Shown: positions 6,076 through 57,599, numbered from the stretch's first letter. The stretch is 64,000 bases of DNA from Candidatus Spongiisociaceae bacterium (GCA_965202675.1 OZ241842.1:2098918-2162917), one strand, 5' to 3'. Translations and numbers: made by a program. The notes: generated from the letters alone by a model not told the origin.

Positions 6076-6365
6076 CAAATCACGGAATGACAAAAAAATC
6101 CGCCGGATCCGCCTACAAGGGTATTGACTATGTCGCACCGATGCTGTATTAATGGAAGAGCTGCAAGCACCTCCGGTCCGCAGCCGGCGCAGACCGGGAC
6201 AGGGATCATCCTCCGAACGCGATCCTCCGGGGTACTGACCGACCGCGTCCGGGAAACAGGTGGTGGTGGCGGGGGCCGGGCCCGCGAAGCGGGGAGCGGC
6301 GGTGGCGTTTTTCGCGTTCTTGCCGGGTCAGGGGAGGTGGGATAGGTGCTTGAACAGGGGGTTCG
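6076..6365 (+). repeat. Dispersed promoter-bearing structured repeat, copy A
   Basis: High visible identity to 42868-44541 (+, interrupted by IS110) and 45826-46219 (-), from CAAATCACGGAATGACAAAAAAATC through CCCGCGAAGCGGG to TTTTTCGCGTTCTTGCC. Confidence 0.92.
6124..6153 (+). promoter_or_regulatory. Sigma70-type promoter within repeat copy A
   Basis: TTGACT-17 bp-TATTAAT with an upstream A7 tract; the equivalent TTGACT-17-GATAAT is in copies B (42916-42944) and C (46144-46172, minus). Confidence 0.7.
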
Positions 6366-6433
6366 CGGGAAAAGGGTTTGGGCTTACGCGGTGGTTTGTG
6401 TCTTTCTCCGTAAATACGACCGGCGGTAGGAAG

Positions 6434-6612
6434 TCAGGCCCTCGGCCTGTTTGATGACCGTATCGGTTGCCTTCTCCTGCTTGTCGGGCAGGTACCCGTG
6501 CTCCGCGGAAGCCTCTTGACCGCGATGCGCCGCCGGGCGCGCACATCTTCGCGCCGGGTCCAGTCGATGCCGGTGTTGTAGCGCACCGTCTCCACCAGCT
6601 CGCGGCGATCAT
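6434..6612 (-). pseudogene. hsdR: 3' remnant of a second type I restriction subunit gene
   Basis: Diverged copy of the last ~180 bp of hsdR (about 8840-9020): [24 protein letters not shown], with frameshifts. Confidence 0.85.
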
Positions 6613-6722
6613 GATCAGTCATCCCGCAGGTTTTCCCAATTGCTCTCATAATCAGGCACCTCGGTTCTACTCATGATGGATAATACCTCTAGCCAGCTGC
6701 CAATCAAGAGACGCATTCTATA

Positions 6723-6801
6723 CATGCTTGTACTCGGCGGCGTCCATGGTCCTCCGCAGGCTGTCCGCCATCTTCCAAAGCTCAATCTCATACCCCGTGA
6801 T
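6723..6801 (-). pseudogene. hsdM: 5' remnant of a second type I methyltransferase gene
   Basis: Near-identical to about 17004-17082 ([16 protein letters not shown]...DAAEYKH); same position directly after a DUF4276-like gene. Confidence 0.85.
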
Positions 6802-7409
6802 TAGCTTTCATTGTTTGACCTAGTCTGTTGATCTAACTGCTCAAGAAATCGTTTGGCGTATGGAGATGCCTGCTTGATCTTATCCGGGTTGAGAGTTGCT
6901 AGAATATTAAAGCTGTGTGAGCCTTTGCTGTAAGAGCCCTTCTTGGTATTACGAGTTGCTTGACGGAGTTTATCCAGGACATCATCTTTAGGCACTATCT
7001 CGACATTATTGTATTGCGGTATTGCATCTGCCCGAAAACCTTGACCGTAGTATTCCTGCAATGCTTCTTTGTCGGCTAGAAACCATGATTCCATTATCAG
7101 CACCATCATATGGCATTGTTCCTCGGTGGCATTGCTGGGCTTTGACCATCCATCCCGCTTGTTCAAATGTTGCCAAGGTTTATCTCCTGCTTTGATCGAA
7201 TCTTCGGCATCCACAAGCAAAATACAAAGTTTGTTATCCTCATGAGCAGTTTTGAATTTGTCATAAGCATTATCACGGCTGCCGCAAGCCATTATTCTTG
7301 GCATTCTCTCTTCAAATCCTGCCCTTTTTATGAACTCTGTAAAACCCTTACGGCATTTTGGTTTGAGTGAACCTTCGCCGCCTCCTTCCACATATATTGT
7401 GATGCTCAC
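6801..7409 (-). CDS. DUF4276-like TOPRIM-fold protein (copy 1)
   Basis: ITIYVEGGG N-terminal acidic strand, ACGSRDNAY, LLVDAE, MESWFLADKEAL, YSKGSHSF; GTGA overlap with the upstream ATPase; AT-rich. Confidence 0.8.
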   Translation of the reverse strand: MSITIYVEGGGEGSLKPKCRKGFTEFIKRAGFEERMPRIMACGSRDNAYDKFKTAHEDNKLCILLVDAEDSIKAGDKPWQHLNKRDGWSKPSNATEEQCHMMVLIMESWFLADKEALQEYYGQGFRADAIPQYNNVEIVPKDDVLDKLRQATRNTKKGSYSKGSHSFNILATLNPDKIKQASPYAKRFLEQLDQQTRSNNES

Positions 7410-8698
7410 CAGCGATTCCCTCCCAACTCACCAGTTGTCCAGAGATCACCTAGGCGATATTCTTTAAGCCAAGGCTCAAGTTCCTTTTTGTTGAGCCTAC
7501 GAAGTTGTGTACCAGTTTCAGGTTTTTCACAAACTATAATTGATTCTGGGATATCGGTTAGAGAATCCACAAGTATTTCAGAATGAGTTGTAACTATTAT
7601 CTGACTATGCTCGGATGCTTCTATAAGTAGATCTGCCATCTCACAAATTATATCTGGGTGCAATCCGGTTTCGGGTTCCTCTAAGCAAATAATTGATGAA
7701 GGCTCAGGATTACATAACACCGTTAGTAGACATAGATAACGTAAAGTTCCATCAGATAGCCTGTTAGATGATATCGGATGATCTAATCCTTCTTCATGAA
7801 ATTGTAATTGGACGGTACCATCTCTCAGTCTAGAGACAATATCCAGGACATGTGGATAAAAGGATCGTATGTGGGTCATGATCTTTTGCTTTATCAGGGG
7901 TCGGGTAAATAGATCGTTCAAAACCAGGCCAAGGTTAGAAGCATCTTCTAGTAGGAAATTTTGTGTTTGGTCTGTTGATTGTGGGGAGCGTATTGGACCG
8001 CCTCTAGATAAATCCCATTCCCGATAAAATCTGATTCCTTTAAATCTATCTCCCAGATATGTTAATTCTGGATATGCATCTGGATTACGGAGTTGCTCTA
8101 AAATAGATTGCTCAGGAATAACCTCTATTCTTTGTAGACCTCTTTGAGGTGGCGACTGTAGGAATCGTTGAGTATCCTGGGTTAGAAAAGTTAGAGAAGG
8201 ATCCTGGGTTAGAGGGGGAGCTTGATCTCTTATCTCTTCCATAGGTACATCAAGTACAGGTTGACCATTCTGAAAGCTGTAATATGGATAAGGCTCAGTA
8301 TATCCTGTGAAGGGCACTGCTGTTTCTATTGCTTCATCTACAAGTGTAAATCTTTGTTCATATTCTTGAAATGTTAGCCGGTACCTGATGTCCAGTCTTC
8401 CTAGTTGTGGGTGTTTGGTAGTAACTTCTATGGTAGCTGGAGAGGTTGACTCGACTCCTTTCCAAAGCCATTCTCGTGTCCCGCCGCCTAAGCGTATAGG
8501 CTCGAGTATATCTCTAGGCGTAGCGGCAAGAAGAGACAAAGCCTCAATAAGGTTTGACTTACCGGAGGCATTTGGTCCTATTAGGACATTAAGAGGTTGC
8601 AGTTCGAATTCAGGAGTTTCAGGACCGTAGGAAAGGATATTATTCAGGCGGACTGTTCGGATGAAGTGTTTCTTCATCCATTTCTGCTCCTGTCCCAT
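7406..8698 (-). CDS. ABC-type (AAA_21-like) ATPase (copy 1)
   Basis: Walker A GPNASGKSN, signature LSDGTLRYLCLL, Walker B CLEEPETGLHP, H-loop IVTTHS; true start may be 8677. Confidence 0.9.
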   Translation of the reverse strand: MGQEQKWMKKHFIRTVRLNNILSYGPETPEFELQPLNVLIGPNASGKSNLIEALSLLAATPRDILEPIRLGGGTREWLWKGVESTSPATIEVTTKHPQLGRLDIRYRLTFQEYEQRFTLVDEAIETAVPFTGYTEPYPYYSFQNGQPVLDVPMEEIRDQAPPLTQDPSLTFLTQDTQRFLQSPPQRGLQRIEVIPEQSILEQLRNPDAYPELTYLGDRFKGIRFYREWDLSRGGPIRSPQSTDQTQNFLLEDASNLGLVLNDLFTRPLIKQKIMTHIRSFYPHVLDIVSRLRDGTVQLQFHEEGLDHPISSNRLSDGTLRYLCLLTVLCNPEPSSIICLEEPETGLHPDIICEMADLLIEASEHSQIIVTTHSEILVDSLTDIPESIIVCEKPETGTQLRRLNKKELEPWLKEYRLGDLWTTGELGGNRW

Positions 8699-8818: not shown

Positions 8819-11800
8819 TCAGGCCAGCCAGACGGAGGTCAGGGCCTCGGCCTGTTCGATGACCGTGGGGGCGGCTTTCTCCCGTTTGTCGGGCGGGTAC
8901 CCGTGCTTGCGCAGGAGCCGTTTGACCGCGATGCGCAGCCGGGCGCGCACGTCTTCGCGCCGGGTCCAGTCGATGCCGGTGTTGGAGCGCACCGTTTCCA
9001 CCAGCTCGCGGGCGATCATGCTCAGCACCTCGTCGCCCATCACCGCCACCGCGCTGTCGTTGGTCTCCAGGGCGTCGTAGAAGGCCAGCTCCTCCTCGGT
9101 GAGGCCGAGCTCCTCCCCCCGCGCGTCGGCCGCCCGCATATCCCGGGCCAGGCCGATCAGCTCCTCGATCACCTGCGCCGCTTCCACGGCCCGGCTCCGG
9201 TAGCGGCGCAGGGCCTGTTCCAGCAGGTCGGAGAAGAGCTCCCCCTGCACCACGTTGCGCCGCCTGCGCCGCTTCACCTCCCCCCGGAGCAGCCTCTGCA
9301 GCAGCTCGACGGCCAGGTTGCGGCGGGGCATCCCCTTCACCTCGGCCAGGAACTCGTCGGAGAGGACGGAGATGTCGGGCCGGTCCAGCCCGGCGGCGGC
9401 GAACACATCCATCACCCCCTCGGCGACCACCGCCCGGGAGAGGATCTGGCGCACCGCGTGGTCCAACGCCTCCTCGGGCGCCACGCCGCCCGGCGTCCGC
9501 TTGACCAGGGCCGCCCGCACCGCCTGGAAGAAGGCCACATCCTCGCGTATCTCCTCGGTGATGCGGTGGGGGACCGCCAGGGCGAACGCCTGCGACAGCT
9601 GCCGCACCGCCTGCAGACAGCGGTCCTTGCCGTCCTGCAGGGCCAGGACGTGCTCCAGGGCGGCGGGCAGCAGCTCCAGCCGCTCCGCCCCGCCCCCGTC
9701 CGCCCACGCCGATCGGTCGAACCCGTGGAACATCCCCAGGCAGACCTCGTACTTCTCCTGCAGCGCCGCCGCCGCCTGCTCCTGGTCCAGCACCGCCTCG
9801 CCCCGCCCGCCTCCGTCCGCGTACACGGCCAGGGCCCGCTTCAGCTCGTGGGCCACCCCCAGGTAGTCCACCACCCGCCCGCCCGGCTTGTCCCTGAACA
9901 CCCGGTTGACCCTGGTGATGGCCTGCATCAGCCCGTGCCCCCGCATCGGCTTGTCCAGGTACATGGTGTGCAGGCTGGGGGCGTCGAACCCGGTCAGCCA
10001 CATGTCCCGCACCAGCACCATCCTGAGCGGGTCGCCCGGGTCGCGGAACCGGTCGCCCAGGGCCTTGCGGCGGCCCTTGGTGCGGATGTGGCGCTGCCAG
10101 TCGGGCGGGTCGGAAGCCGATCCGGTCATGACGATCTTGATCTCGCCCCCGCCGTCGTCCGGATGCTCCCAGCCGGGCCGCAGGCGCACCAGCTCCCGGT
10201 ACATATCCACACAGATGCGCCGGCTCATGCACACCACCAGCGCCTTGCCGTCCATGGCCTCCAGCCGCTCCTCGAAGTGGGCCACGATGTCCTCGGCCAC
10301 CTCCCGCAGGCGGTCCCCGGCGCCGACCAGGGCCTCCACCTGCGCCCATTTGCGCCCGAGGTCGTCCCGGCGCGACGACTCCTCCCCCTCGGTCACCTGC
10401 TCGAAGTCCTCGTCTATCTCCGCCCGCCGCCCTTCGTCGAGTGACAGCCCGACCAGGCGGCTCTCGTAGAAGACGGGGACGGTGGCCTTGTCCTCCACCG
10501 AGCGTTTGATGTCGTAGACGCTGATGTACTCGCCGAACACGGCCCTGGTGTTGGCGTCCTGCTGCTCGATCGGGGTGGCGGTGAAGCCAATGAAAGAGGC
10601 GTGCGGCAGGGCGTCGCGCATGTGGCGGGCGAACCCGTCGATGAAGTCGTACTGGCTGCGGTGGGCCTCGTCGGCGATCACCACGATGTTGCGCCGCTCG
10701 GACAGGACGGGGTGGGCGTCCCCCTTCTCCTCCGGGAAGAACTTCTGGATGGTGGTGAACACCACCCCGCCCGACTCCACCGACAGCCGCTTCCGCAGGT
10801 CGGCCCGGCTCTCCGCCTGGGCGGGCGGCTGGCGCAGCATATCCCGGCAGCGGGAGAAGGTGTCGAACAGCTGGTCGTCGAGGTCGTTGCGGTCGGTGAG
10901 CACGACGACGGTCGGGTTCTTCATGGCCGGCTCGCGGATGATCCGCCCGGCGTAGAACACCATGGTCAGGCTCTTGCCCGCCCCCTGGGTGTGCCAGACC
11001 ACCCCGATCCGCCGGTCGCCCGGCTTCCCGCCCCGCCCGGCCTCCCCGCCGGCGTCGGCGGGCGGCTGCGCACCGACCGCCCGCAGGGTCTCTCGGACGG
11101 CGGCCTGCACCGCGTGGAACTGGTGGTATCCGGACACCTTCTTGGCGGGGCGCTCCCCCTCGTAGCCCTCGAAGACGATGAAGTCCCGCATCAACGACAG
11201 GAAGCGCCGCGGCTCCAGCACCCCTTCGAAGAGCGCCCGCATCTCGTACCGGACCTCTCCGCCCTCCTCCTCGGCGGGGGTGCGCCACGGCTTGAACCAT
11301 TCCCGCCCGGCGGTGAGCGTTCCCACCCGCGCCTCGAGCCCGTCGGAAACGATCATCAGCCCGTTCATCGAGAACAGGTCCGTAAGCTCCGACTTGTAGG
11401 TCTGCAGCTGCTGCCAGGCGGTCCAGATGGTGGCGTCCTCGTCCAGCGGGTTCTTGAACTCGACCACCGCCAGCGGGAGGCCGTTGACGAACAGAACGAA
11501 GTCCGGCCGCCGCTCATGGTCGCCCTCCCTGACGATGAACTCGTCGAGGGCCAGCCAGTCGTTGTTGCCGGGCTCCTCGAAGTCGATCACCCGGGCCTGC
11601 ACCCCCTTGATGCGGTTGTTCCTGGTGCGGTACTCCACCGGCACCCCGTCCACCAGCATCCGGTGGAAGTTGCGGTTGCGGATCTCCGTCAGCGCCCCCT
11701 CGGGCCGGGTCAACCGGCGGAGGGCGTCCTCCCGCGCATAGGCGGGCAGGCCCGGGTTGAGCCGCTCGACGACCGCCCGCAGCCGCCCCTCCAGCACCAC

Positions 11801-15546: not shown

Positions 15547-17135
<1,589 letters not shown>

Positions 17136-22876: not shown

Positions 22877-23650
22877 ATGCCGGACCGAGACGGATACGAA
22901 CACGGGACACCCTGCTGGATCGATCTCAGCTCCGATGACATCGAGGGGGCCAAGGCCTTCTACAGCGGGTTGTTCGGGTGGGAGTGGGACGACCGGGAAG
23001 GTCCGGACGGGAGCTTCATGTACTCGCTCGCCCAGCTGGACGGGCGCAACGCGGCGGGGCTGGGTCCGGCGCCGCCCGAGATGGTCGAGATGGGGCTGCG
23101 GGGGATATGGAACGTCTACATGGCGGTCGATTCTCTCGACGAGGCCTACCAGGCGGCCCTCGACGCCGGCGGGTCAGGGGTGGTTCCTCCCTTCGATGTC
23201 ATGGACTCCGGGCGGATGGCCTACATCGCCGACGACCAGGGCGTCAACGTAGGGTTGTGGCAGGCCGGCGCCCACAAGGGCGCCCAGGTGGTCAACGAGC
23301 CGGGCGCCTTCACGTGGTGCGAGGTCTACCTTCCCGACACCGAGGCAGGGGCGCGCTACTACGGCAGGGTGTTGGGGATGTGCGCCGAGCCGGCCGGGAT
23401 GACCGAGATGGACTACACCCTCCTGAAAGTAGGCGGCAATCCGGTGGCCGGCCTCATGGAGCCCCCGGAGGGCGTGCCCCCCTGCTGGAGCGTCTACTTC
23501 GGTGTGTCCGACGCCGAGCAGGCCGCCGCCCGGATCGCCGAGTTGGGCGGCAAGGTCGTAAACGGCCCCTTCCCGACCCCCATGGGCCCGATGGTCGTCG
23601 CCCAGGACCCCTCGGGCGGGGTGTTCCTGGCCGTCCAGTACAACGGGTAG
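22877..23650 (+). CDS. VOC (glyoxalase/bleomycin resistance) two-domain protein
   Basis: GTPCWIDL, AKAFYSGLFGW, W(N/S)VY(M/F)xV in both halves, QDPSGGVF. Confidence 0.9.
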   Translation: MPDRDGYEHGTPCWIDLSSDDIEGAKAFYSGLFGWEWDDREGPDGSFMYSLAQLDGRNAAGLGPAPPEMVEMGLRGIWNVYMAVDSLDEAYQAALDAGGSGVVPPFDVMDSGRMAYIADDQGVNVGLWQAGAHKGAQVVNEPGAFTWCEVYLPDTEAGARYYGRVLGMCAEPAGMTEMDYTLLKVGGNPVAGLMEPPEGVPPCWSVYFGVSDAEQAAARIAELGGKVVNGPFPTPMGPMVVAQDPSGGVFLAVQYNG

Positions 23651-23693
23651 CCAGGAGTTTCTCCATCCCCTGAATTTTTCGCATTCTGGAACG

Positions 23694-23920
23694 AGGGTAT
23701 TGTATTTGTCATAGGTTTGTGATACTATGTGTGTGCTAAAGCACAAACACCGCCGCCGGGGTTCCGGAGTGTGCGGCGGTCATCATGGGAATCTTTGTCA
23801 GGCCGGGCACCGGCGCCCGAACAGGGTTGCGCGTCCGGCGAAGGGATCCGATGCTGGTGGCGGAGGCGGGGGAGGGCTCCCGGCGTAGCCGGGCGCAAGT
23901 GGGCAGGTTTTTCGCGGTCT
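23694..23920 (+). repeat. Diverged copy D of the promoter-bearing structured repeat
   Basis: Same ordered blocks as copies A-C: AGGGTATTG, AAGCAC, CCGAAC, CGCGTCCGG, GGTGGCGG.GGCGGGGG, GNA-loop hairpin, GTTTTTCGCG.TCT. Confidence 0.72.
23700..23728 (+). promoter_or_regulatory. Sigma70-type promoter of repeat copy D
   Basis: TTGTAT-17 bp-TACTAT with an extended -10 TG; no sense-strand ORF downstream. Confidence 0.65.
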
Positions 23921-24140
23921 CAGCGTTGCGGTCTGTGCGGTCTGTAAGGAACGGGGTTGCTTCGCGGAATGCGTAACGCATTACTTGTTCGATGTACCGG
24001 TTGAGTTCAGCGTCCCATTCTTTGGCTTTCGACGAGTACCCGGGTATGTGGTCGCCGTCGTGGAGTGCGATGTCGACTACGTCGGGTGGGCTGTCCGGTG
24101 GAACCCCACCACAGTGAGGGTTTGAACGCATACCTCGTTT

Positions 24141-25157
24141 TCAAAAGGCGCTTCTCACTATATCCTCCCCGTCCACCCGCACCCGCACCAGAAAGAGCCG
24201 AACGCCGCCATCTAATGCCCTATGCACAACCTCACCGATCCCTTCGAACTGGTACTTTGAGCTACCAGACCTGTTACCTTCTGGCCCCCAGGTACCGTAG
24301 AACCGATGTCCGGTCTTACCCAGGAACAAGGGGAGCGTAGTATCGTTTTCGTAGACCGTGATCTCGGCGGCCTGATCCTTCCGTCCGGAAGGTGCTAGAC
24401 CATCCGGCGTTGGCACTGGTACGGACCCCTTCAGCAAACGGAATTGAATCACTTCAGGCAGTTCTATCTGCGAATCCCGTTGCAAACCTACCTCAACGTA
24501 AGGACTAGTTGTGATATTTACTAGTCGATGGCACTTTCGGCAAATCAGCTCATCACTGTCATTAAACGGCTCTAGCTTATGTTTGCACACCGACCACTGG
24601 AGGTTATGGAGTAAATTGTCTAGACCTTTGACCGATCTCAGATTATCCAGAGGCCGGAGCGATTCCAATAGCCTGTCCTCGAAGGGTATGTCTTCCAGAG
24701 ACTGGTAGTAATCATTCCACCGCAGCTGGTCAAAGTCCTGGGGACGCGATTTCGGACGGAGACGGTGAAACGGCTTGGAACGGTAGTAGTCGTAGCGTAC
24801 CTTGATACGGCACGGTTTTGGCGAACCGCCGGTTTCGTCCAGTTTTTTCAGCCAGTTCCCAAGCTGGAAGGTGGATGTAAGGTCTATGGTTTTGCCCTCT
24901 CCCGGCGCAAGGTTGAACACGGGAGCCCGTCGGGGCGGCTCCAAGAAGTACACTGACCCTGGCGGGTCCAGGAAAGTAACTACCACACGGTGCGCTGAAC
25001 GGCCGCCATGATTATGGAAACGGACACCAGCGTACCGGCCGCCAACGATATCCCAGTTGACGCCTAACCGAGGCCGTTCACGATATAAGCCAGCATACGC
25101 CGCTCCGGCTACAGCCAGTATTTCCAGCATAGGTACTATTAGGTCCAGTGGGCTCAT
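24141..25157 (-). CDS. Hypothetical protein, lower GC (N-terminal TM; Cys/His cluster)
   Basis: 338 aa from ATG 25157 with GAAGGAGG RBS; composition differs from the flanks. Confidence 0.65.
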   Translation of the reverse strand: MSPLDLIVPMLEILAVAGAAYAGLYRERPRLGVNWDIVGGRYAGVRFHNHGGRSAHRVVVTFLDPPGSVYFLEPPRRAPVFNLAPGEGKTIDLTSTFQLGNWLKKLDETGGSPKPCRIKVRYDYYRSKPFHRLRPKSRPQDFDQLRWNDYYQSLEDIPFEDRLLESLRPLDNLRSVKGLDNLLHNLQWSVCKHKLEPFNDSDELICRKCHRLVNITTSPYVEVGLQRDSQIELPEVIQFRLLKGSVPVPTPDGLAPSGRKDQAAEITVYENDTTLPLFLGKTGHRFYGTWGPEGNRSGSSKYQFEGIGEVVHRALDGGVRLFLVRVRVDGEDIVRSAF

Positions 25158-25425
25158 TACCTGTCCTCCTTCTGTCGTGTGCTCTGCTTCCTCAGCCCTC
25201 CAGCGAGCAACCAGGAACGTACCCGTCCGAAGACGGGTTTCAGCTTCAGCACATGTGTCATGCCTCGAACGCCAGATTCTCCATCCGGGACTCAACCGGA
25301 GTGAGATAATACAAATCCCACGAAATCTGGCAACGATCCGTCCGGGCGGGATCTCTGGTAGCCGTGCTACAACGGTCCCTGCCAGGGCCCGTTCGAAGCC
25401 CGGCTGGCTTGTGTGTGTTGCCCGT

Positions 25426-38585: not shown

Positions 38586-40157
38586 CTACCAGCGGGTGCC
38601 TCGGCCGGTTACTTCTTCCACGGGCAGGGCGATGGGGTAGCGGCTGCGGATCCATTCGTCCTGTTCTCGGGTGATGTGGGACGGGAAGTGGTTGCGCATG
38701 ACCTCGGTGACGTGTTTGCGGGCCCGTTCGGCGGCGTTGGATGCGCCCAGGTCTTTCCAGTCGTCGGGGCTGTTGCGGTCGCCGATCACCGGGTACAGGT
38801 ATTCGCTCTGCATGAGCCGGAGGGTCTGCTCGCTGCCCAGGAAGTGGCCCGGTCCGGCGATGGTGTCGCGGATCACCTGAGCCGAGAGGGAGCCTTCGTC
38901 GATGTCCACGCCCCGGATGGTGCGTACCGCGGCGCCCAGCATGTCGTTGTCGATCGCCAGGGCTTCGAGCGAGCAGGCCAGCAGGGAGGCCAGCATCCCC
39001 GCCGACTCGTACACCACGTTGGCGCCCGCCAGGCCGGCCAGGACGGTGGTTATGCCCTTCTCGTAGCCGGCTTGGTTGTCGGGCAGTTTCGAGTCGGCCA
39101 TTCCCGCCGCCACCCCGGAGGGAAGGCCCAGCCAGTTGACCACCTGGGCGGCGGCGGCGTTGAGCACCGCCGCCTCGCCCGACCCGCCGCTCATGGCCCC
39201 GGTGCGCAGGTCCGACACGAACGGCCACAACCCCATCACGCACGGATGCCCGGGGCTGATCAGGTTGACGCTGGTGAGGCCGGCCAGGCATTCGGCCAGG
39301 GCTTGGACCAGCGACCCCCCCAAGGCGGCGGGCGAGGTGGCCCCGGCCTGCCCCGCCGACAGCAGGTTGATGGGCATCCCCGTGTGGATCTGGGCCGCCA
39401 TGCACTCGGCGGATTCGTAGGCGAAGCGGAGGGGCGGCACCACGAAGGTGTTGTTGGCGCAGGCGAAGGGCCGCCGCCGGAACTCGCCCTTCCCGCCCAG
39501 CACATGGTCGTACATATCCACCACCTCGTGGACGTGTTCGGGCCGGAAGAAGGAGGTCCCCTGGGGTTTGTCGGTGCCCATCATCACCGCATAGGCCGTG
39601 TTGATGTCAACCTCGCGGGAGGATTCCACGTCCCTGGTAACCACGGTGCGCATGAAGATGTGGATGTGCTCCAGCGTGTCGACCAGGCGGGCCGCGTCGT
39701 AGAGGTCGGCGGTGGTGGAGGGGCGGAACTCCCGGCTGCCGCAGTCCAGCATCAGCACCGCCGCCCCCGCCGTGCTGTAGTGGACCCTGCGGTCGGACAG
39801 CTCGAGGCTCTTGTCCTCGTCCAGGCCGTGCCACACCCACGACTTGGCGGCGGTGCTCTCGATCACCCGCTCCACCACCGCCCGGGGATAATGAAGCCGC
39901 CCGCCGTCGTCCATGCGCCCCCCGGCCCCGGTTACCGCCTTGACGAACTCGGGGATCGGGTCGCCCATCCCCACCTCGTCGATCAGCTCCAGGGCGGTGT
40001 CGTACACCCGCTGCATGTCGGACTCGGTGAGGGGGGCGAAGGCGCCGCCCTCCAGACCCGGGCGGACGGCGCGCTCGCCGGGCGCGGGGCCCGCCGCCCG
40101 GGCCGCCACCCTGGCGGCCCGCCCTCCGGCGCGTCTCCGGCGGGTCGCGTCAGCCAT
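38586..40157 (-). CDS. Trimethylamine methyltransferase family protein (MttB superfamily, no pyrrolysine)
   Basis: PLRF...P...SAGQAGATSPAALGGSLVQALAE, SDLRTGAMSGGSGE, YESAGMLASLL, GPGHFLG; no in-frame TAG. Confidence 0.92.
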   Translation of the reverse strand: MADATRRRRAGGRAARVAARAAGPAPGERAVRPGLEGGAFAPLTESDMQRVYDTALELIDEVGMGDPIPEFVKAVTGAGGRMDDGGRLHYPRAVVERVIESTAAKSWVWHGLDEDKSLELSDRRVHYSTAGAAVLMLDCGSREFRPSTTADLYDAARLVDTLEHIHIFMRTVVTRDVESSREVDINTAYAVMMGTDKPQGTSFFRPEHVHEVVDMYDHVLGGKGEFRRRPFACANNTFVVPPLRFAYESAECMAAQIHTGMPINLLSAGQAGATSPAALGGSLVQALAECLAGLTSVNLISPGHPCVMGLWPFVSDLRTGAMSGGSGEAAVLNAAAAQVVNWLGLPSGVAAGMADSKLPDNQAGYEKGITTVLAGLAGANVVYESAGMLASLLACSLEALAIDNDMLGAAVRTIRGVDIDEGSLSAQVIRDTIAGPGHFLGSEQTLRLMQSEYLYPVIGDRNSPDDWKDLGASNAAERARKHVTEVMRNHFPSHITREQDEWIRSRYPIALPVEEVTGRGTRW

Positions 40158-50245: not shown

Positions 50246-51436
50246 TCAGGCGGCGGCGATAGCCTCCGCGATCCATGCGTCTACCTGGTCCTGATTTCTG
50301 GCGATCCACTCAGTTACCAGTTCGCCGAGGTCCGCCCCGTTCTCCTGTTCGACGATTTGCAGTGATACATCCACGATGTTCAGTTTCATGACTTCGAACA
50401 ACTTGGCGGCGGCCGGGTTCTCGGCCAGGAAGTCATGGCGGGCTGATACCAGGATGTCGGCCACCACCCAACCGAGCCGGCAGGTTCCCTGCTCGGCGGC
50501 GGCGGGGCATTCTTCGGGGCCGATTTCAGCGGTGCCGGGCCTCTGGTCCCATTCCTCGCCTCCCTCTCGGCCGAGGGGGTTGGAATTGTCGATGACTTCC
50601 TCGACCCCCACCCAGACCACGTTGTCGCCCGGACGGAGCTGGGTGATGTACGAGCTCGGCGCCCATGTGTAGGCGACCATCGGCTCGCTGGCGCTTGCCT
50701 TGGCGATGGCTTCGGCCATCATGGCATCGTATCCGGCCAGTATCTGCTGGATGTTTTCCCAGCCGGAGAAGGCGATCTGGCTCTCGATCACGTCGTCGCA
50801 GGTCCAGCTCTCCGGACATCCGTATATATCCGCTATGCCGTTGCCGGGGTTGGCGTCGTCTGCATCGTATGCGGCGAGAGCCTCGGGGTTGTTGTTCAGG
50901 TCGTCAAGAGTGTTGATTCCGAACTCCTCGGCGAACGGCTTGGTGATCAGGTATCCCTGCAAAGCGCTTTTGGCCAACAAGCCGCCGACCCGACCGACGT
51001 GCTCTCCGACCAAGGAGCCGTCAGCCGTTTCATGTTTTAGCCAGCTGTTATGGAGGGGATACCAGCTGTTTGCCCAGAAATCGACATCACCCTGGGCCAT
51101 AGCCAGGTAGGCCAGCGACGGTCCCAGCTCGGCGTCGGCCGGGTCGCTCACCTCGTACCCCAGCATCTGCATGAGCCGGTGCACCAGCTCGGCCTGGAAG
51201 TAGCCGGTCGCCCAATTGGCGCGGGCCATGGTGACGCTGACGCCTTCACCCGGGAGCGTTTCTTCCGTCATGGTGGTGGAGGTCTCCATCAGGGCGGTTG
51301 TCGTTGTTGATGGGGAGGCGGTAGTGGTGGTGATGCGCGATGTGGTGGTTGATGTATCGGCGCTGTTGCCGTCGCTGCAGGCCGCAACCAGCAGAGCAAA
51401 CACCATCGCCGCGATAAGCCTCTGGCTTAGTTTCAT
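50246..51436 (-). CDS. proX: Glycine betaine/proline ABC transporter substrate-binding lipoprotein (1)
   Basis: Lipobox LVAAC, MARANWATGYFQAE, YGCPESWTCD, YTWAPS. Confidence 0.88.
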   Translation of the reverse strand: MKLSQRLIAAMVFALLVAACSDGNSADTSTTTSRITTTTASPSTTTTALMETSTTMTEETLPGEGVSVTMARANWATGYFQAELVHRLMQMLGYEVSDPADAELGPSLAYLAMAQGDVDFWANSWYPLHNSWLKHETADGSLVGEHVGRVGGLLAKSALQGYLITKPFAEEFGINTLDDLNNNPEALAAYDADDANPGNGIADIYGCPESWTCDDVIESQIAFSGWENIQQILAGYDAMMAEAIAKASASEPMVAYTWAPSSYITQLRPGDNVVWVGVEEVIDNSNPLGREGGEEWDQRPGTAEIGPEECPAAAEQGTCRLGWVVADILVSARHDFLAENPAAAKLFEVMKLNIVDVSLQIVEQENGADLGELVTEWIARNQDQVDAWIAEAIAAA

Positions 51437-51555
51437 GTTGGTTCCCCTCGGCTTGTTGACTTGGTATCCAATATAACAGACGGCACTCTATTTAATGAGC
51501 CCCCAGGTTTGATCGGTTAGAACTCGCAGGCGCGTCGAGAGGACCGGTTGAATAA

Positions 51556-51585
51556 GTGAAGGGGCGCCCGGCGGCGCCCCTTCAC
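51556..51585 (-). terminator. Intrinsic terminator-like hairpin after proX (2)
   Basis: 13-bp perfect stem GTGAAGGGGCGCC/GGCGCCCCTTCAC, 4-nt loop, followed by TTATT on the minus strand. Confidence 0.7.
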
Positions 51586-51605
51586 GCAGTTCGGGCGGTG
51601 GTTTA

Positions 51606-52811
51606 TCAGGCGGCGGCCATCGCCTCTGTGATCCACGCGTCGACCTTGTCCTGGTTGTCGGCGATCCATTGGGTTACGAGGCCGCCGATATCCGCTCCGC
51701 CGTCTTGTTCGACGATCTGGAGGGATACGTCTACGACGTTCAGCTCCATGATCTCGAGCAGTTTGGCAGCGGCCGGATTCTCGTCCAGGAAATCATTGCG
51801 GGCCGAAGCCAGGATGTCGGCGGCGACCCAGCCGAGCTGGCAGATTCCCCGCTCCGCGGCGTCGGGGCACGACTCGGCGCCGATCGCGGCGGTGCCGGGC
51901 CTCTGATCCCATGCTTCTCCGCCTTCGCGGCCGAGGGGGTTGGAGTCGTCGACGACTTCCTCGACCCCCACCCAGACCACGTTGTCGCCCGGACGGAGTT
52001 GGGTGATGTACGAGCTCGGCGTCCATGTGTAGGCGACCATCGGCTCGCCGGCGTCTGCCTTGGCGATGGCCTCGGCAAGCATGGCATCGTAGCCGGCCAG
52101 TACCTGCTGGATGTTTTCCCAGCCGGAGAAGGCGATCTGGCTGGCGAGGATGTCGTCGCAGGTCCAGCTCTCCGGGCATCCGTAGATATCGGCTATGCCG
52201 TTGCCGGGGTTGGCGTCGTCGGCGTCGTAAGCGGCGATGGCGTCGGCGTTGCTGTTCAGATCATCGAGTGTGTTGATCCCGTACTGCTCGGCGAAGGACT
52301 TGGTGATCAACAACCCCTGTAGTCCGCCTGCGGTCATCAGATTGCCGACCGCCCTGACATGGTCACCTACCTGGGAGCCGTCCGGCATTTCGGCCTCGAG
52401 CCAGCTGTTGTGGCCCGGATACCAGCTGTTGACCCAGAAATCGGCGTCACCCTGCGCCATCGCCAGATAGGCCAGCGACGGTCCCAGCTCGACGTCGGCC
52501 GGGTCGCTCACCTCGTATCCCAGCATCTGCATGAGCTGACGCGCCAGCTCGGCCTGGAAGTAGCCGGTCGACCAGTTGGCGCGGGCCATGGTGACGCTGA
52601 CGCCCTCACCCGGGAGCATTGGTTCCTCCATCATGGTGGTGGTCGTTTCCTCCATTGTGGTGGTGGTCGTGGTCTCCTCCATCATGGTGGTCGTCGTGGA
52701 CGGGGCGGCGGCTTGTGTCGTCGATGGCTCGTCGCTGCCGTTGCCTCCACAGGCCGCGGCCAGCAGAGCGAACACCGCCAACACCGACATGATCCTCTTA
52801 CTGTGTCTCAT
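51606..52811 (-). CDS. proX: Glycine betaine/proline ABC transporter substrate-binding lipoprotein (2)
   Basis: Lipobox LAAAC; close paralog of 50246-51436. Confidence 0.88.
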   Translation of the reverse strand: MRHSKRIMSVLAVFALLAAACGGNGSDEPSTTQAAAPSTTTTMMEETTTTTTMEETTTTMMEEPMLPGEGVSVTMARANWSTGYFQAELARQLMQMLGYEVSDPADVELGPSLAYLAMAQGDADFWVNSWYPGHNSWLEAEMPDGSQVGDHVRAVGNLMTAGGLQGLLITKSFAEQYGINTLDDLNSNADAIAAYDADDANPGNGIADIYGCPESWTCDDILASQIAFSGWENIQQVLAGYDAMLAEAIAKADAGEPMVAYTWTPSSYITQLRPGDNVVWVGVEEVVDDSNPLGREGGEAWDQRPGTAAIGAESCPDAAERGICQLGWVAADILASARNDFLDENPAAAKLLEIMELNVVDVSLQIVEQDGGADIGGLVTQWIADNQDKVDAWITEAMAAA

Positions 52812-52887
52812 GGTTGATGTCCTTCTTTCCGTTTGGTCCCGGTGAAGGGACCCTAGCTAGAGATTGAATTATCGTTTGAGCCGGTGC

Positions 52888-55047
52888 TCATCCGGCCTTT
52901 CTATCTGTTCCGCCGACAGGCCCGCCTGCCGGGTTGGCAACCAAGGTGAGGGGATCGCTGTAAACCCTGGCGCGCCTGTACTCCCTTAGAACCGCCATAG
53001 TAGAGGCCAGGATGGATATCCCGCCGATCAGAGCCAGGAAGGAGCCTACTCCGCTCACAAAGCTGGGGTGGCCGGAGCGCACATGGGTGAGTATCCACGC
53101 GAGGGCGATGCCGGCAATTCCCCCTCCGATACCGGCGGCGGCGGCGCTCCACCGCCATCTCCGCTGCTCACCGCCGCCCAATACACCCGCGGCGGGAAGA
53201 CCGGCAAGGGCGGCAACCAGACCTGCCGCCAAAGCCCAGAGGCCGAGCCGGGCGCCGCGGGTGCTGATCCCATCAATTTTGATCTCCTCCCGGGCGGATG
53301 TCCGCAAGTCCAGTACTTTGGCGCCGATCGCCGCTCTTTCATCAGGGTATTCATCCGCCCTCCGCTCGAGCTCCTCGATCTCCGCTTGGATATCCGGCGG
53401 TATTTCGGTATCTCCCCGGTCTTCGATGCTCCAGACGGAGAAAAGGCCGATCAGCAGGACAAGAGCGGCGGCTATGTTCCCTATCAAACTGCCCCAGCTG
53501 ATCCCGGACGGCAGAGGGTGGAGGGGCTTGTGATCCGCAACCCTTATCCATAGCACCGCTCCGACCGCGGCTATCAGCCCTCCCGCTATTGCCGTATACA
53601 CCCCGACGCCTTGACCGGGATCAACTGCTCCGGTCACATTGGAATCGCTCATCGGACTGGCCAAGAAGTGCGAGGCGGCCACGATCAGCGCGGCGAAGGA
53701 GGCGATGACCGCCCCGTCAGGGGCCAGCCATCGCGGTGCCCGGCCGGGCCGGGATGCGCCGGCTGCTGCCAGCACCGCGAACAATCCGAGCGCCAGCACC
53801 GTGATACCGAACCAGGATCCTCCGGAGGCCGCCAGCCCGTTGAAAACCTGACCCACCAGCTCGCCGTTGAGGGAGGCGTCAGCCCATCTGCTCCACGCGC
53901 TCATCTTGCCCGCGTTCGATGTCCAGGGGAGAAAGACAGATACAATGGCTGTCAGGCCCCCTGTTAGGGTCAACGCTATAGGAAGGCGCTCGGCGTCGAC
54001 AATAGGTGCATAGGTAATTTCGGTCTCTTTGTGTTCTACAACTGCTGAGGCATCCTGGCTGGGAATCAGCATCTCGGGGTCGCGCCGATGCTTCCATGCC
54101 AACTGGATGCGTTTCAGCAGGCTGCGCCTTTCGGCCTCTTCACGCTGGGATATCCGGTCGAGGATCACCGCCAGCAGGAAGAAGGCAAGCCCCCCGGACG
54201 CACCTAGGCCGACATCCTGGTTGTTGATTGCTCGAAAAAGCAACGCTCCGTAACCACCGGCGCCCATCAGTCCTGCTATTCCGAGCATCGAGATGGCTAA
54301 CAACAGGGTTTGGTTGATGCCGGTCATTATGGCAGGCCGCGCCAGTGGGATCTGAACGTCGAAGAGCACCCGGCTCTCCGAGGCGCCGTAAGCGCGGGCG
54401 GCTTCTACCACGTCGGGCGGTACCTGGCGGATTCCGAGGTTGGTGAGGCGGATCAGGGGAGGAATGGCGAACACCATGGTCACCATCGTGGCCGAAACCT
54501 CGCCGATGCCAAAGAACCAGATGAACGGCAACATGTACACAAACGAATGGACTACCTGCATGGCGTCGAGAATGGGTCGGCTTACCTTCCAGATCCCATC
54601 TATCCGTCCACAGGCGATGCCGATCGGAATCCCGATCACCACACTCAGCAATACGGCCACCCCGATGAAGCCGAGTGTATCAGTCGTCGCCGTCCAGTAG
54701 CCCTCCCCCATGAGTCCGCAGACCGTCAGGGACACCGCGACGAAGGCGGCCACCTTGAGGTTGCGGACCAGCCAGGCGATCAGCGCTATCGCCAGTACCA
54801 CCCAAATCCAAGGGATATCCCTCAAGATATCCCTGACGACTGTACGGATCAGAAAATCAAAGGGCCATTCCATTATATTGAGCACCGGGCCGGCCTCGTT
54901 GTAGATCCAGCGGGCGCTCTGCTTCATCCAGTCGCCGAACGGTATCCGCCACTGGTCGAGGAAACGGTTGTCCAGGAAGCCTAGATTCTCGGCGTCTCCC
55001 TCAGCCCCTTGGGCGAGGAAGACGCCGGCTTGATGCAGGAAGCTCAT
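52888..55047 (-). CDS. proW: ProW-type permease with long C-terminal membrane extension (1)
   Basis: PILDAMQ, PPLIRLTNLGIRQVP, EAARAYGAS (EAA loop), GINQTLLLA; about 400 extra aa. Confidence 0.85.
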   Translation of the reverse strand: MSFLHQAGVFLAQGAEGDAENLGFLDNRFLDQWRIPFGDWMKQSARWIYNEAGPVLNIMEWPFDFLIRTVVRDILRDIPWIWVVLAIALIAWLVRNLKVAAFVAVSLTVCGLMGEGYWTATTDTLGFIGVAVLLSVVIGIPIGIACGRIDGIWKVSRPILDAMQVVHSFVYMLPFIWFFGIGEVSATMVTMVFAIPPLIRLTNLGIRQVPPDVVEAARAYGASESRVLFDVQIPLARPAIMTGINQTLLLAISMLGIAGLMGAGGYGALLFRAINNQDVGLGASGGLAFFLLAVILDRISQREEAERRSLLKRIQLAWKHRRDPEMLIPSQDASAVVEHKETEITYAPIVDAERLPIALTLTGGLTAIVSVFLPWTSNAGKMSAWSRWADASLNGELVGQVFNGLAASGGSWFGITVLALGLFAVLAAAGASRPGRAPRWLAPDGAVIASFAALIVAASHFLASPMSDSNVTGAVDPGQGVGVYTAIAGGLIAAVGAVLWIRVADHKPLHPLPSGISWGSLIGNIAAALVLLIGLFSVWSIEDRGDTEIPPDIQAEIEELERRADEYPDERAAIGAKVLDLRTSAREEIKIDGISTRGARLGLWALAAGLVAALAGLPAAGVLGGGEQRRWRWSAAAAGIGGGIAGIALAWILTHVRSGHPSFVSGVGSFLALIGGISILASTMAVLREYRRARVYSDPLTLVANPAGGPVGGTDRKAG

Positions 55048-55222
55048 CGGCGCTTCATCTGACTCTCCTCGCGGGTCATGGAAGAGGATACTCCATTCAA
55101 CGGGCCGCCTCCTCCGGCTCGACCCTGGCCGCCGACCAAGCGGTCTTTCGCGCCTCAGGCGGCCGGGAGCAACTCAGATCGCGGCCAGCCCCTACCCGGA
55201 CAACGGCCGGGTGAAAGGATGG

Positions 55223-55255
55223 GGGAAGGGGCGCCCGTACCGGGTGCCCCTTCCC
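55223..55255 (-). terminator. Hairpin after proX (3)
   Basis: Stem GGGAAGGGGCGCCC/GGGTGCCCCTTCCC, related to the 51556 hairpin. Confidence 0.6.
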
Positions 55256-55280
55256 TCTCCACAAGGGCCGGACGAAACGC

Positions 55281-57599
55281 TTATCCGGCGACGCGGGCCG
55301 CGAGCAGCCAGGAATTGGCCAGATCGCGGTTGTTTGCGATCCAGGCGGCGGCGTGGTCTCGTACGTCGGCTTCGCTGTCCTCGCCGAGGCTGTACCGCAC
55401 GTTCTGTAGGGCTACGTCTACCGGGCTGATGGTGAACAGCTCGAGCAGACGCGCCGCGGCCGGGTTGGCGGCCAGGAAGTCGTTGTTGGCGACCACCCGG
55501 ATGTCGGCGGCGTCCCAACCCAGGTTGCAAGGCGTGGCCGAGCACTGGTCTTTCCCGAGAACGGCCGGTCCCCCCACCTGGGTGGGTGAAACCGATTCCT
55601 CGGAGGTGGACAGCCAGACGGCGTTGTCGCCGGGCCGCAGGTCGCCCACGTAGGCGCTGGGCGCCCAGGTGTAGACCAGGTAGGCCTCGCCGGCGGCGTC
55701 GCGGCTGATGGCGTCGGCGATCAGGGCGTCGTAGGAACCCACCGGCAACTGCTCGATGTTCTCCCAGCCGGCGTTGGCGATCCACGAGTTGATGTTGTCG
55801 TGGCATCCCCACCCTTCGGGGCATCCCAACAGCTGGATCACCCCGTCGTCGGGAGTGCTGTCATCGGCGTCGTAGAGGGCGAACAGAGCCGGATCGTTGA
55901 CGATCTGGTCGAGCGTGGCGATGCCGTGCTCTTCGGTCAGGCTCTTGTTGGTCAAGATGCCTTGCAGACCGCCGGTCCGCATCTCGAACCCGATGGAGGT
56001 TACGTGGTCGCTGACCAGGGACCCGTCGGGCATGGCGCCCGCCACGAAGCTGTTGTGGTTGGGGAACCAGCCGTTGGGCCAGAAGTCGAACTCGCCGTTG
56101 GCCATCGCTACATAGGCGTTGGACGGCGCCAGTTCCAGATCGGACGGATCGCTCACCTCGTAGCCGAGCTCTTCCAGCAGAGCCGCAAAGATAGCCGCCT
56201 GCATATAACCGGTAGACCAGTTAGCCCGCGCCATCGTCACGCTGACGCCCGCGCCCGGCGTCGGGTTCGGCGGCACCTGGGCGACTGCCAGCCATTCGTC
56301 GACGGTAGACCGGTTGTTTGCGATCCAGGCGGCGGCGTGGTCTCGTACGTCGGCTTCGCTGTCCTCGCCGAGGCTGTACCGCACGTTCTGTAGGGCTACG
56401 TCTACCGGGCTGATGGTGAACAGCTCGAGCAGACGCGCCGCGGCCGGGTTGGCGGCCAGGAAGTCGTTGTTGGCGACCACCCGGATGTCGGCGGCGTCCC
56501 AACCCAGGTTGCAAGGCGTGGCCGAGCACTGGTCTTTCCCGAGAACGGCCGGTCCCCCCACCTGGGTGGGTGAAACCGATTCCTCGGAGGTGGACAGCCA
56601 GACGGCGTTGTCGCCGGGCCGCAGGTCGCCCACGTAGGCGCTGGGCGCCCAGGTGTAGACCAGGTAGGCCTCGCCGGCGGCGTCGCGGCTGATGGCGTCG
56701 GCGATCAGGGCGTCGTAGGAACCCACCGGCAACTGCTCGATGTTCTCCCAGCCGGCGTTGGCGATCCACGAGTTGATGTTGTCGTGGCATCCCCACCCTT
56801 CGGGGCATCCCAACAGCTGGATCACCCCGTCGTCGGGAGTGCTGTCATCGGCGTCGTAGAGGGCGAACAGAGCCGGATCGTTGACGATCTGGTCGAGCGT
56901 GGCGATGCCGTGCTCTTCGGTCAGGCTCTTGTTGGTCAAGATGCCTTGCAGACCGCCGGTCCGCATCTCGAACCCGATGGAGGTTACGTGGTCGCTGACC
57001 AGGGACCCGTCGGGCATGGCGCCCGCCACGAAGCTGTTGTGGTTGGGGAACCAGCCGTTGGGCCAGAAGTCGAACTCGCCGTTGGCCATCGCTACATAGG
57101 CGTTGGACGGCGCCAGTTCCAGATCGGACGGATCGCTCACCTCGTAGCCGAGCTCTTCCAGCAGAGCCGCAAAGATAGCCGCCTGCATATAACCGGTAGA
57201 CCAGTTAGCCCGCGCCATCGTCACCGACACGCCGTCGCCGGGGCGGGCGGTGGCCGCCGCAACGGCTTCCTGGGCTTCCTCCAGGTCCTGCAGGGCTTGC
57301 GCTACGGCCGCCTCGGCCGCGGCCCTGATCTCTTCCAGCGCCTCCTGGGCCTCCGCGTCGCTGGCGGCGGCGGCCGCTTCGGCGGCCGCTTCGGCGTCTG
57401 CCAGGGCCTCCCGGGCCGCTTCCAGCTCGGCCCGGGCTGCCTCGGCCTCGGCCCGGGCTTCCTCGGCGGCGCTGGTGTCTATGATCGTGACCGGCGCAGC
57501 AGTGGTGGTCGGGGCGTCATCTGCGGTGCTGCCGCAGGCCGCCGCCAGCAACCCCAGCACGGCCAGCCCCGCGATCGCGGTTCTTGTTCTTCTCGTCAT
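55281..57599 (-). CDS. proX: Substrate-binding lipoprotein with two identical ProX-like domains
   Basis: Lipobox LAAAC, Ala/Glu coiled coil, then the MARANWSTGY... domain twice. Confidence 0.88.
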   Translation of the reverse strand: MTRRTRTAIAGLAVLGLLAAACGSTADDAPTTTAAPVTIIDTSAAEEARAEAEAARAELEAAREALADAEAAAEAAAAASDAEAQEALEEIRAAAEAAVAQALQDLEEAQEAVAAATARPGDGVSVTMARANWSTGYMQAAIFAALLEELGYEVSDPSDLELAPSNAYVAMANGEFDFWPNGWFPNHNSFVAGAMPDGSLVSDHVTSIGFEMRTGGLQGILTNKSLTEEHGIATLDQIVNDPALFALYDADDSTPDDGVIQLLGCPEGWGCHDNINSWIANAGWENIEQLPVGSYDALIADAISRDAAGEAYLVYTWAPSAYVGDLRPGDNAVWLSTSEESVSPTQVGGPAVLGKDQCSATPCNLGWDAADIRVVANNDFLAANPAAARLLELFTISPVDVALQNVRYSLGEDSEADVRDHAAAWIANNRSTVDEWLAVAQVPPNPTPGAGVSVTMARANWSTGYMQAAIFAALLEELGYEVSDPSDLELAPSNAYVAMANGEFDFWPNGWFPNHNSFVAGAMPDGSLVSDHVTSIGFEMRTGGLQGILTNKSLTEEHGIATLDQIVNDPALFALYDADDSTPDDGVIQLLGCPEGWGCHDNINSWIANAGWENIEQLPVGSYDALIADAISRDAAGEAYLVYTWAPSAYVGDLRPGDNAVWLSTSEESVSPTQVGGPAVLGKDQCSATPCNLGWDAADIRVVANNDFLAANPAAARLLELFTISPVDVALQNVRYSLGEDSEADVRDHAAAWIANNRDLANSWLLAARVAG
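55327..57224. repeat. 914-bp direct repeat (55327-56240 and 56311-57224), period 984 bp
   Basis: The two units appear base-for-base identical by eye, separated by a unique 70-bp in-frame linker. Confidence 0.93.

Follow-up and report, generated by a model that had tools for sequence, protein, structure and literature searches.

Copy D is best read as an intact member of subfamily S2 in a high-copy family of self-contained small-RNA cassettes, which appear to be mobile and are probably DNA-damage-inducible. We consider this reading likely. Copy D lies in a stretch of 64,000 nucleotides (the window) from a Candidatus Spongiisociaceae bacterium (GCA_965202675.1 OZ241842.1:2098918-2162917), and the genome around it is a single contig of 3.008 Mb with 66.6% G+C. 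The reading is carried by homology, copy number, the division into subfamilies, covariation in hairpin P1, a match in motif and spacing to recA-type promoters, and pafBC-like genes. In the model that we propose, each cassette would join a promoter to a structured RNA of roughly 190-200 nt that is followed by an end module. The promoter of most types would combine a -10 hexamer with TGTC(A/G)N exactly 10 bp upstream, the layout read by PafBC, the DNA-damage activator of Actinobacteria, with RNA polymerase-SigA. The RNA part would contain hairpin P1, a CGCG core and an invariant G-tract, and the end module a GC hairpin followed by UUUUCGCGNUCU. Upon DNA damage, PafBC would switch on many cassettes at once and cassette RNA would be made. 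The conserved promoter and fold would reflect what the element needs to persist or spread. The positions of all copies and parts are given in Table 1.

Table 1. Cassette copies in the window, the parts of copy D and neighboring features.
Feature	Position	Strand	Remarks
Copy A	6077-6326	+	S1 cassette; promoter TTGACT-17-TATTAA; 193.5 bits with covariance model R1
Copy D, full cassette	23674-23920	+	Intact S2 member
Upstream "T-box"-like motif ATTTTTCGCATTCT	23674-23687	+	5' edge of the S2 core; kept in 38 S2 copies; resembles the 3' end motif
Shared upstream element AGGGTATTG	23694-23702	+	23694-23705 when the -35-like hexamer is included
Weak -35-like hexamer TTGTAT	23700-23705	+	17-bp spacer to the -10
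PafBC-type -26 element TGTCAT	23707-23712	+	10 bp 5' of the -10; layout of the published consensus
-10 hexamer TACTAT	23723-23728	+	Predicted transcription start near 23735, from spacing
Hairpin P1	23749-23780	+	ACCGCCGC (23749-23756) pairs with GCGGCGGT (23773-23780); inner CCGG/CCGG stem, GGTT loop
Conserved core CGCGTCCGG	23830-23838	+	CGCG nearly invariant in all subfamilies and genera (alignments)
G-tract GGTGGCGGAGGCGGGGGAGGG	23856-23876	+	G positions nearly invariant; single spacer bases free to vary
3' hairpin CCCGGC-GTA-GCCGGG	23879-23893	+	Hairpin described in the initial annotation
3' "T-box" GTTTTTCGCGGTCT	23907-23920	+	U-run plus conserved CGCGNTCT; most conserved block across genera
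131-codon ORF	24131-23736	-	Runs antisense into cassette D
Orphan gene in the low-GC DNA linked to D	24141 to 25157 or 25295	-	No Pfam match
Copy B, 5' part	42869-43053	+	S1 cassette
IS110-family element	43054-44348	-	1295 bp; splits copy B in the G-tract; Pfam DEDD_Tnp_IS110 and Transposase_20
IS110 transposase ORF	43064-44104	-	346 aa, DEDD transposase
Copy B, 3' part	44349-44413	+	52.4 bits with R1
Copy B, tail modules	44414-44560	+	Shared with copy C
Copy C, tail modules	45783-45960	-	Shared with copy B; extend to about 45783
Copy C	45970-46219	-	S1 cassette; 198.5 bits with R1

The shared upstream element AGGGTATTG occurs four times in the window compared to 0.21 expected, and its sites other than the one in D belong to copies A, B and C. 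A sequence reading of 23400-24300 recovered every motif of the initial annotation on the plus strand and where it had been placed, and the same motif order runs throughout S1 and D, as had been claimed. A whole-unit profile HMM, extending from promoter through end motif and built from S1 copies only, gave D about 31 bits (E = 2e-7 genome-wide, model positions 11-221), compared to 1.8 bits for the best of 1000 dinucleotide shuffles of D. The check proposed at the outset was thus run in two forms, of which this whole-unit profile sets D clearly apart from background and a covariance model gave a marginal result. Covariance model R1, built from 41 S1 copies and covering the RNA part only, scored D at 16.9 bits (E = 0.0037 by a rough calibration); the best background in the window was 13.1 bits, and D was the top non-S1 match there. 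Chimeric copies exist in both directions, one with an S1 body and an S2 3' end (p219981) and one with an S2 body and an S1 3' end (p2880302). Because of these chimeras and a profile-HMM score far above the shuffles, the homology of D to copies A-C is secure.

Blastn with copy A found about 100 full-length copies in the genome at 80-90% identity, and D was absent from its matches at E <= 1e-5. The expectation that simple BLAST would miss D was thus correct for this search, but the S1-only profile HMM does find it. With D as the query, blastn returned 38 full-length copies elsewhere in the genome (78-87% identity) and weaker relatives. A search by nhmmer with a profile from the cross-genus alignment gave 173 genome matches, 160 of them near full length. 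Clustering of the ~160 copies produced 16 clusters: S1 with 99 copies plus 4 that are IS-interrupted, S2 with 38 copies including D, and 14 minor clusters that together hold 19 copies. D had been described as a highly diverged fourth copy, a description that has to be given up, since D is a typical representative of S2, a subfamily of at least 38 copies that are about 80-87% identical. Since S2 has itself multiplied, what separates A-C from D is the distance between two subfamilies of an element that proliferates. What looks like a "diverged copy" within one window may be a glimpse of an entire second subfamily.

The spacing of the predicted promoter is kept among these types. The -35-like and -10 hexamers are 17 bp apart in S1 (TTGACT with GATAAT or TATTAA), in S2 (TTGNNN with TACTAT) and in other genera (TTGAAC with CATACT), which upholds the claim of a kept promoter geometry for S1, S2 and the cross-genus types measured. 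In a third promoter type of this genome (TAGACG ... TAYAAA, about 14 copies) the spacing appears to be the same, as read from the consensus only. D's TTGTAT-17-TACTAT had also been called consensus-like, and here the claim is true in part: both hexamers and the 17-bp spacing are present, but TTGTAT matches TTGACA at 3 of 6 positions and a simple sigma-70 scan was silent.

A conserved spacer motif, TGTC(A/G)N, starts two bases after the -35-like hexamer and lies exactly 10 bp from the -10. The PafBC binding consensus is tGTCgg(N10)tA(N3)T and is read with RNA polymerase-SigA at promoters without a -35 element (PMC8635444). D has TGTCAT-N10-TACTAT, with the spacing of the PafBC -26 element to the -10, and its first hexamer is the same as that of the comM promoter. 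The pattern TGTCRN-N10-NANNNT is found in 31 of the 38 copies of S2 and 54 of the 99 of S1, as well as in 16 of 20 relatives. TGTC itself is present in about 130 of 160 copies, and about 90 keep the full TGTC-N10-NANNNT spacing. The strict motif does not fit 45 of the 99 S1 copies or the about 14 copies of the TAGACG ... TATAAA type. In addition, a TTGNNN hexamer stands one base 5' of TGTC in most copies (88/99 S1, 31/38 S2), so the cassettes depart from PafBC promoters in the lack of a -35 element that marks the latter.

The same TGTC motif was found 20-100 nt 5' of recA, ssb, rmuC, comM, yraN and a DUF222-HNH gene of this genome, and several methyltransferase genes are also preceded by TGTC-N10. 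At recA, TGTCAC-N10-TACCTT lies 43 nt upstream, beside a LexA-type box. None of the PafBC-type sites at recA, ssb, rmuC, comM and the other genes has a -35-like hexamer. Two adjacent WYL-domain ORFs (genome positions 370856-371982) have the form expected of pafB and pafC. Given the poor -35 match of D, the silent sigma-70 scan and a TGTC-N10 layout like that of recA-type promoters, the D promoter is better read as PafBC-type, with a -26 and a -10 element, than as a near-consensus -35/-10 promoter; the -35-like hexamer would be an addition found in most copies. Read this way, the cassettes are predicted to depend on PafBC and to be induced by DNA damage, and promoter spacing would place the transcription start of D near 23735. 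The recA region itself (genome 443470-443700, outside the window) has two promoter-like sites, of which the PafBC-type site is nearer the start codon and the other has TTGACA overlapping the LexA-type box CGAACATCTGTTCG. Mycobacterial recA likewise has two promoters.

At the other end of the cassette, 160 of the 290 TTTTCGCG-type sites in the genome fall at cassette 3' ends. A simple terminator scan called no canonical intrinsic terminator in 23400-24300. In D, 14 nt lie between the end of the 3' hairpin and the U-run, whereas an intrinsic terminator has a GC stem followed immediately by the U-run. Many S2 copies carry an extra hairpin module 5' of ATTTTTCGCATTCT, and D is without it. Transcription of the cassette, the start and end of its RNA and any function of that RNA are predicted from the DNA sequence.

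Hairpin P1 provides evidence for a conserved fold. Among 27 S2-like sequences, 98% of the cells are paired, and double-sided changes have occurred at three pairs (CG to UA, found in five sequences; GC to AU; and CG to UA). The 24 S1 and cross-genus sequences are paired in 87% of cells, with 6 of 8 pairs altered on both sides; slid controls for this second group were far lower. Shuffles matched the observed values in 0 of 500 cases in each of the two groups, a significance that is overstated because the copies belong to one family and are related by descent. The P1 loop of the S1 and cross-genus group contains a 6-nt palindrome that changes in sequence and stays palindromic (GACGTC, GGTACC, GGCGCC, GCCGGC, GGGCCC). 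The G-U pairs in P1 fit the sense strand.

The 3' hairpin has at least five different stems at the same place across the family (CCCGC, CCCGGC, CGGGC, GCGGGC, CCGCCG), and 26 of 51 representatives have a GNA triloop. The S1 form CCCGC-GAA-GCGGG differs from that of D by one inserted G-C pair. On its own, the hairpin of D does not surpass shuffled GC-rich sequence (6 bp, where shuffles average 4.6), so the evidence for this hairpin lies at the level of the family and not of the single copy. The claim that the hairpin is kept through compensatory change therefore stands for the family, with its different stems, mostly GNA loops and P1 covariation, but not for D by itself.

An additional hairpin of the S2-like sequences bears CGCG in the loop, and its stems covary by eye (GGGCC/GGCCC, GGGTC/GACCC, GGTCC/GGACC, GCCAG/CTGGC). 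RNAalifold paired part of the G-tract with the 5' end (P0), and the columns 114/248 show GC 9, AU 8 and GU 3; a G-quadruplex in the G-tract is equally possible. For S1 alone, RNAalifold found covariation in 1 of 38 pairs, a set with too little variation for this test, and the S1 consensus RNA had a minimum free energy no lower than shuffles (z = +1.17). Pairing of the linker with the region before the U-run is perfect in one relative (G019b), and was rejected as a general feature since it is not general across relatives. A small protein or type I toxin encoded across the G-tract and T-box was also rejected, as the frame differs between the S1, G019 and G008 types and the indels are not multiples of three. 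No Rfam family matched the cassettes of the window at gathering score, and D and A gave only noise at E <= 10. One Rfam match of 54.7 bits, to PYLIS_3 (39002-39101, minus strand), was seen within an uninterrupted 523-codon ORF (38586-40157, minus strand). PYLIS_3 is the pyrrolysine insertion element of mttB; as there is no in-frame stop at the match, the ORF looks like an MttB-family gene without pyrrolysine and is not evidence of pyrrolysine use.

The cassettes are intergenic. Among 98 copies, 13 lie between divergent, 33 between convergent and 52 between tandem genes, so that divergent promoter regions are disfavored. Comparison with a sister species (G002) shows sites without the cassette. 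In G002, the glyoxalase and M23 peptidase genes that flank D abut stop to stop; here they are separated by 1775 bp (23651-25425), made up of D and 1.5 kb of low-GC DNA (46-58% G+C). Cassette C and its tail modules are likewise absent from G002, where the PEP carboxylase and ornithine cyclodeaminase genes are 32 nt apart compared to 580 nt here. Copies B and C flank the ornithine cyclodeaminase gene and point toward each other, and their shared tail modules consist of GCTTGACCNGNGGGTTCG sub-repeats and a module ending in TATCCGCGCAC. Such tails vary among S1 copies, 59 of 99 of which end in the TATCCGCGCAC module. With ~160 copies, subfamilies, an intergenic position and absence at the same sites in the sister species, the cassette behaves like a non-autonomous mobile element, and we infer that it is mobile.

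Several candidates for the means of movement were tried. In 50 complete S1 units, no consistent signal of a target-site duplication or inverted repeats was found (maximum z = 3.4 over about 1200 boundary/length combinations); the ends of S1 cassettes are weakly inverted, and a 9-bp repeat around copy C, ACGGTATAA, is an isolated case. No transposase partner for the cassette was found in the genome. An autonomous parent element was rejected, since the large repeats proved to be paralogous genes for surface proteins and LRR proteins, along with ISL3 and IS110 elements, none of which shares the cassette ends. A link to TnpB and omega-RNA was rejected because PF07282 has no match in the genome and, in relatives, does not track cassette presence. 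A link to a reverse transcriptase and a retron msr-msd was rejected as well, with no PF00078 match in the genome.

Several other repeats and gene neighborhoods were observed. Copy A is followed directly by a convergent gene pair (6801-8698, minus strand), in which the gene for an AAA_21/AAA_15 ATPase (430 aa) overlaps that for a DUF4276 protein (202 aa) by 4 nt. Segments 6429-6605 and 6722-6801 recur at 8834-9011 and 17003-17082. Nine or more paralogous stretches of ~6 kb were seen; the one that was checked (L074 655-7095, minus strand; genome 1443355-1449795) encodes a ~2146-aa Calx-beta and SLH protein, and several S1 cassettes lie within 20-2000 bp of these giant Calx-beta/SLH genes. The genome also has a multicopy gene for a 683-aa leucine-rich-repeat protein. 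In 50246-57599 (minus strand), several adjacent ORFs have long internal direct repeats in common (300 identical nt at an offset of 984 bp, and 79% identity at an offset of 1360 bp), which suggests tandemly duplicated paralogous genes.

The IS110-family element in copy B is one of a set. An insert of ~1.3 kb was found at one position of the G-tract (CAGGTG/GNGG, cut at "/") in six S1 copies genome-wide, B included; the other sites are at 1031.5-1033.1, 1073.2-1074.9, 1269.7-1271.4, 1456.7-1458.3 and 1461.5-1463.1 kb. Its recurrence at the same position in six cassettes indicates that the cassette is a preferred landing site. The upstream non-coding end of the element (44105-44348, minus strand) contains a perfect hairpin, CCGGATTTGCTCCAGCATGCTGGAGCAAATCCGG, that may belong to a bridge RNA.

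A first, exact gapped pattern of the cassette had no match in 185,000 species genomes. A looser pattern of the 3' module in the same set gave five records, all from Acidimicrobiia, one of them Candidatus Spongiisocius. Most sampled genomes of two genera of the same family (g2 and g7) gave between 5 and 52 full-length R1 matches each, at 50-67 bits, and a few matches came from the two other species of the cassette's own genus; sampled genomes of genera g3-g6 gave no full-length match. Since three genera of a single bacterial family have it, with dozens of copies to a genome, the cassette family is old, as the initial annotation had held, and the spread of R1 matches indicates that different lineages have expanded in different genomes. 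Some named relatives of the host group are sponge-associated.

It had further been proposed that structure and transcription are under selection. The kept promoter spacing and helices agree with this, but selection may act on features for the spread or persistence of the element and not on a service to the host at each copy. A wider role for the cassettes can be put forward as an extension of the cassette reading, though we regard it as doubtful. The ~160 PafBC-type promoters would then form a damage-wired RNA regulon, with about ten times as many promoters as the repair genes have. Firing together upon single-stranded DNA, they would flood the cell with one structured RNA, which would act through the invariant G-tract and the self-complementary P1 loop. 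This RNA might aid the copying of cassettes or the capture of foreign DNA beside them, as at D and A; alternatively, the RNA and the binding sites might buffer the threshold of the PafBC response. If true, this would make the cassettes a novel class of mobile bacterial RNA genes, ones that have co-opted the damage sensor of their host.

Another possible explanation is that the cassette works as DNA, like a MITE or a REP/BIME, with hairpins that a recombinase or transposase would read as DNA or ssDNA, a promoter that is incidental or tolerated, and no functional RNA. The modular mosaic with its variable tails would suit such a repeat, as would the terminal TTTTCGCG at both ends of S2 (inverted in some copies), the P1 loop that changes and remains palindromic, the unexceptional folding energy, and the fixed IS110 site, a behavior that also links IS110 elements with REPs. 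However, promoter spacing that is kept in several sequence types and genera is hard to explain if transcription is irrelevant, and the G-U pairs of P1 favor one strand. The cassettes also have neither terminal inverted repeats nor a target-site duplication that we could find, and the genome is without TnpB or reverse transcriptase. We consider this explanation improbable.

The cassette could instead be a portable cis-regulatory module, combining a terminator for the upstream gene with a promoter (possibly damage-inducible) or an insulator, so that the 200-nt segment would be a leader. Three observations speak for this: a co-oriented gene stands immediately upstream of 62 of the 98 copies, its stop codon often no more than 100 bp away; many S2 copies start with a hairpin and U-run; and in two relatives a glyoxalase gene on the same strand directly follows the cassette. 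However, the downstream gene is convergent in 56 of 98 copies, including A and D (D has the minus-strand neighbors 23736-24131 and 24141-25295), the genes that follow the cassettes show no relation to one another, and the cassette has a conserved hairpin and U-run at its own 3' end. This makes the module quite improbable, and a self-contained RNA cassette remains the preferred reading. The idea that D came to look like S1 by chance, or because GC-rich, low-complexity sequence converged, with no homology to A-C, could draw on the narrow covariance-model lead over background and the silence of blastn with copy A, but it is refuted by the full-length profile match, the common motif order, the clustering with its intermediate and chimeric copies, and a cross-genus alignment that joins the S1 and S2 types, and we give it practically no weight.

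If the preferred reading is true, an uncultured group of Acidimicrobiia gives close to 2% of a 3-Mb genome to one self-copying structured RNA gene, and that gene carries the promoter logic of recA. It would add a new RNA family with clear covariation, a mobile non-coding element linked to the PafBC damage response, and a natural example of an IS110 element landing in a repeat. To our knowledge, the PafBC damage response has so far been described only for protein-coding repair genes.

The cassette was compared with several known systems, and feature tests rejected it as a canonical MITE, REP, retron RNA, omega-RNA or bridge RNA. Targeting of REP sequences is known for IS110-family elements, as with IS621 in the REPs of E. 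coli, and the six S1 copies with IS110 at one position resemble such landing sites. However, REPs are palindromes of 20-40 nt without a promoter, while the cassette is a gene-like unit of about 250 nt. Near to the general idea are MITEs that carry a promoter or sRNA, such as Correia/NEMIS of Neisseria and the QMITEs of Coxiella (review PMC10969869). Like these, the cassette is a short, non-coding, high-copy intergenic repeat with subfamilies and a promoter (here predicted); it differs in lacking terminal inverted repeats, a consistent target-site duplication and a recognizable parent IS, and in forming a complete unit of promoter, RNA and end with covarying internal helices. HEARO/omega-RNA and the PATEs derived from IS200/IS605 are also multicopy structured RNAs of about 200 nt, often without an adjacent ORF. 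In contrast, the cassette has no Rfam HEARO match, its genome has no TnpB-type gene by the PF07282 search, and its RNA would end in a conserved motif and not in a variable guide.

Also near to the general idea, sibling or multicopy trans-acting sRNAs such as LhrC1-5 and Qrr1-5 share with the cassette a complete small-RNA gene in each copy, with its own promoter, end and conserved elements of fold. They number 2-7 copies compared to ~160 for the cassette, whose dispersal looks like that of a mobile element. For the front end, the nearest known system is the PafBC promoters, which share the TGTC placed exactly 10 bp 5' of TANNNT, and the cassettes use the same TGTCAC/TGTCAT variant as recA, ssb, rmuC and comM of this genome. 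The PafBC promoters described front protein-coding repair genes and lack a -35, whereas here the motif fronts a non-coding cassette, mostly with TTGNNN.
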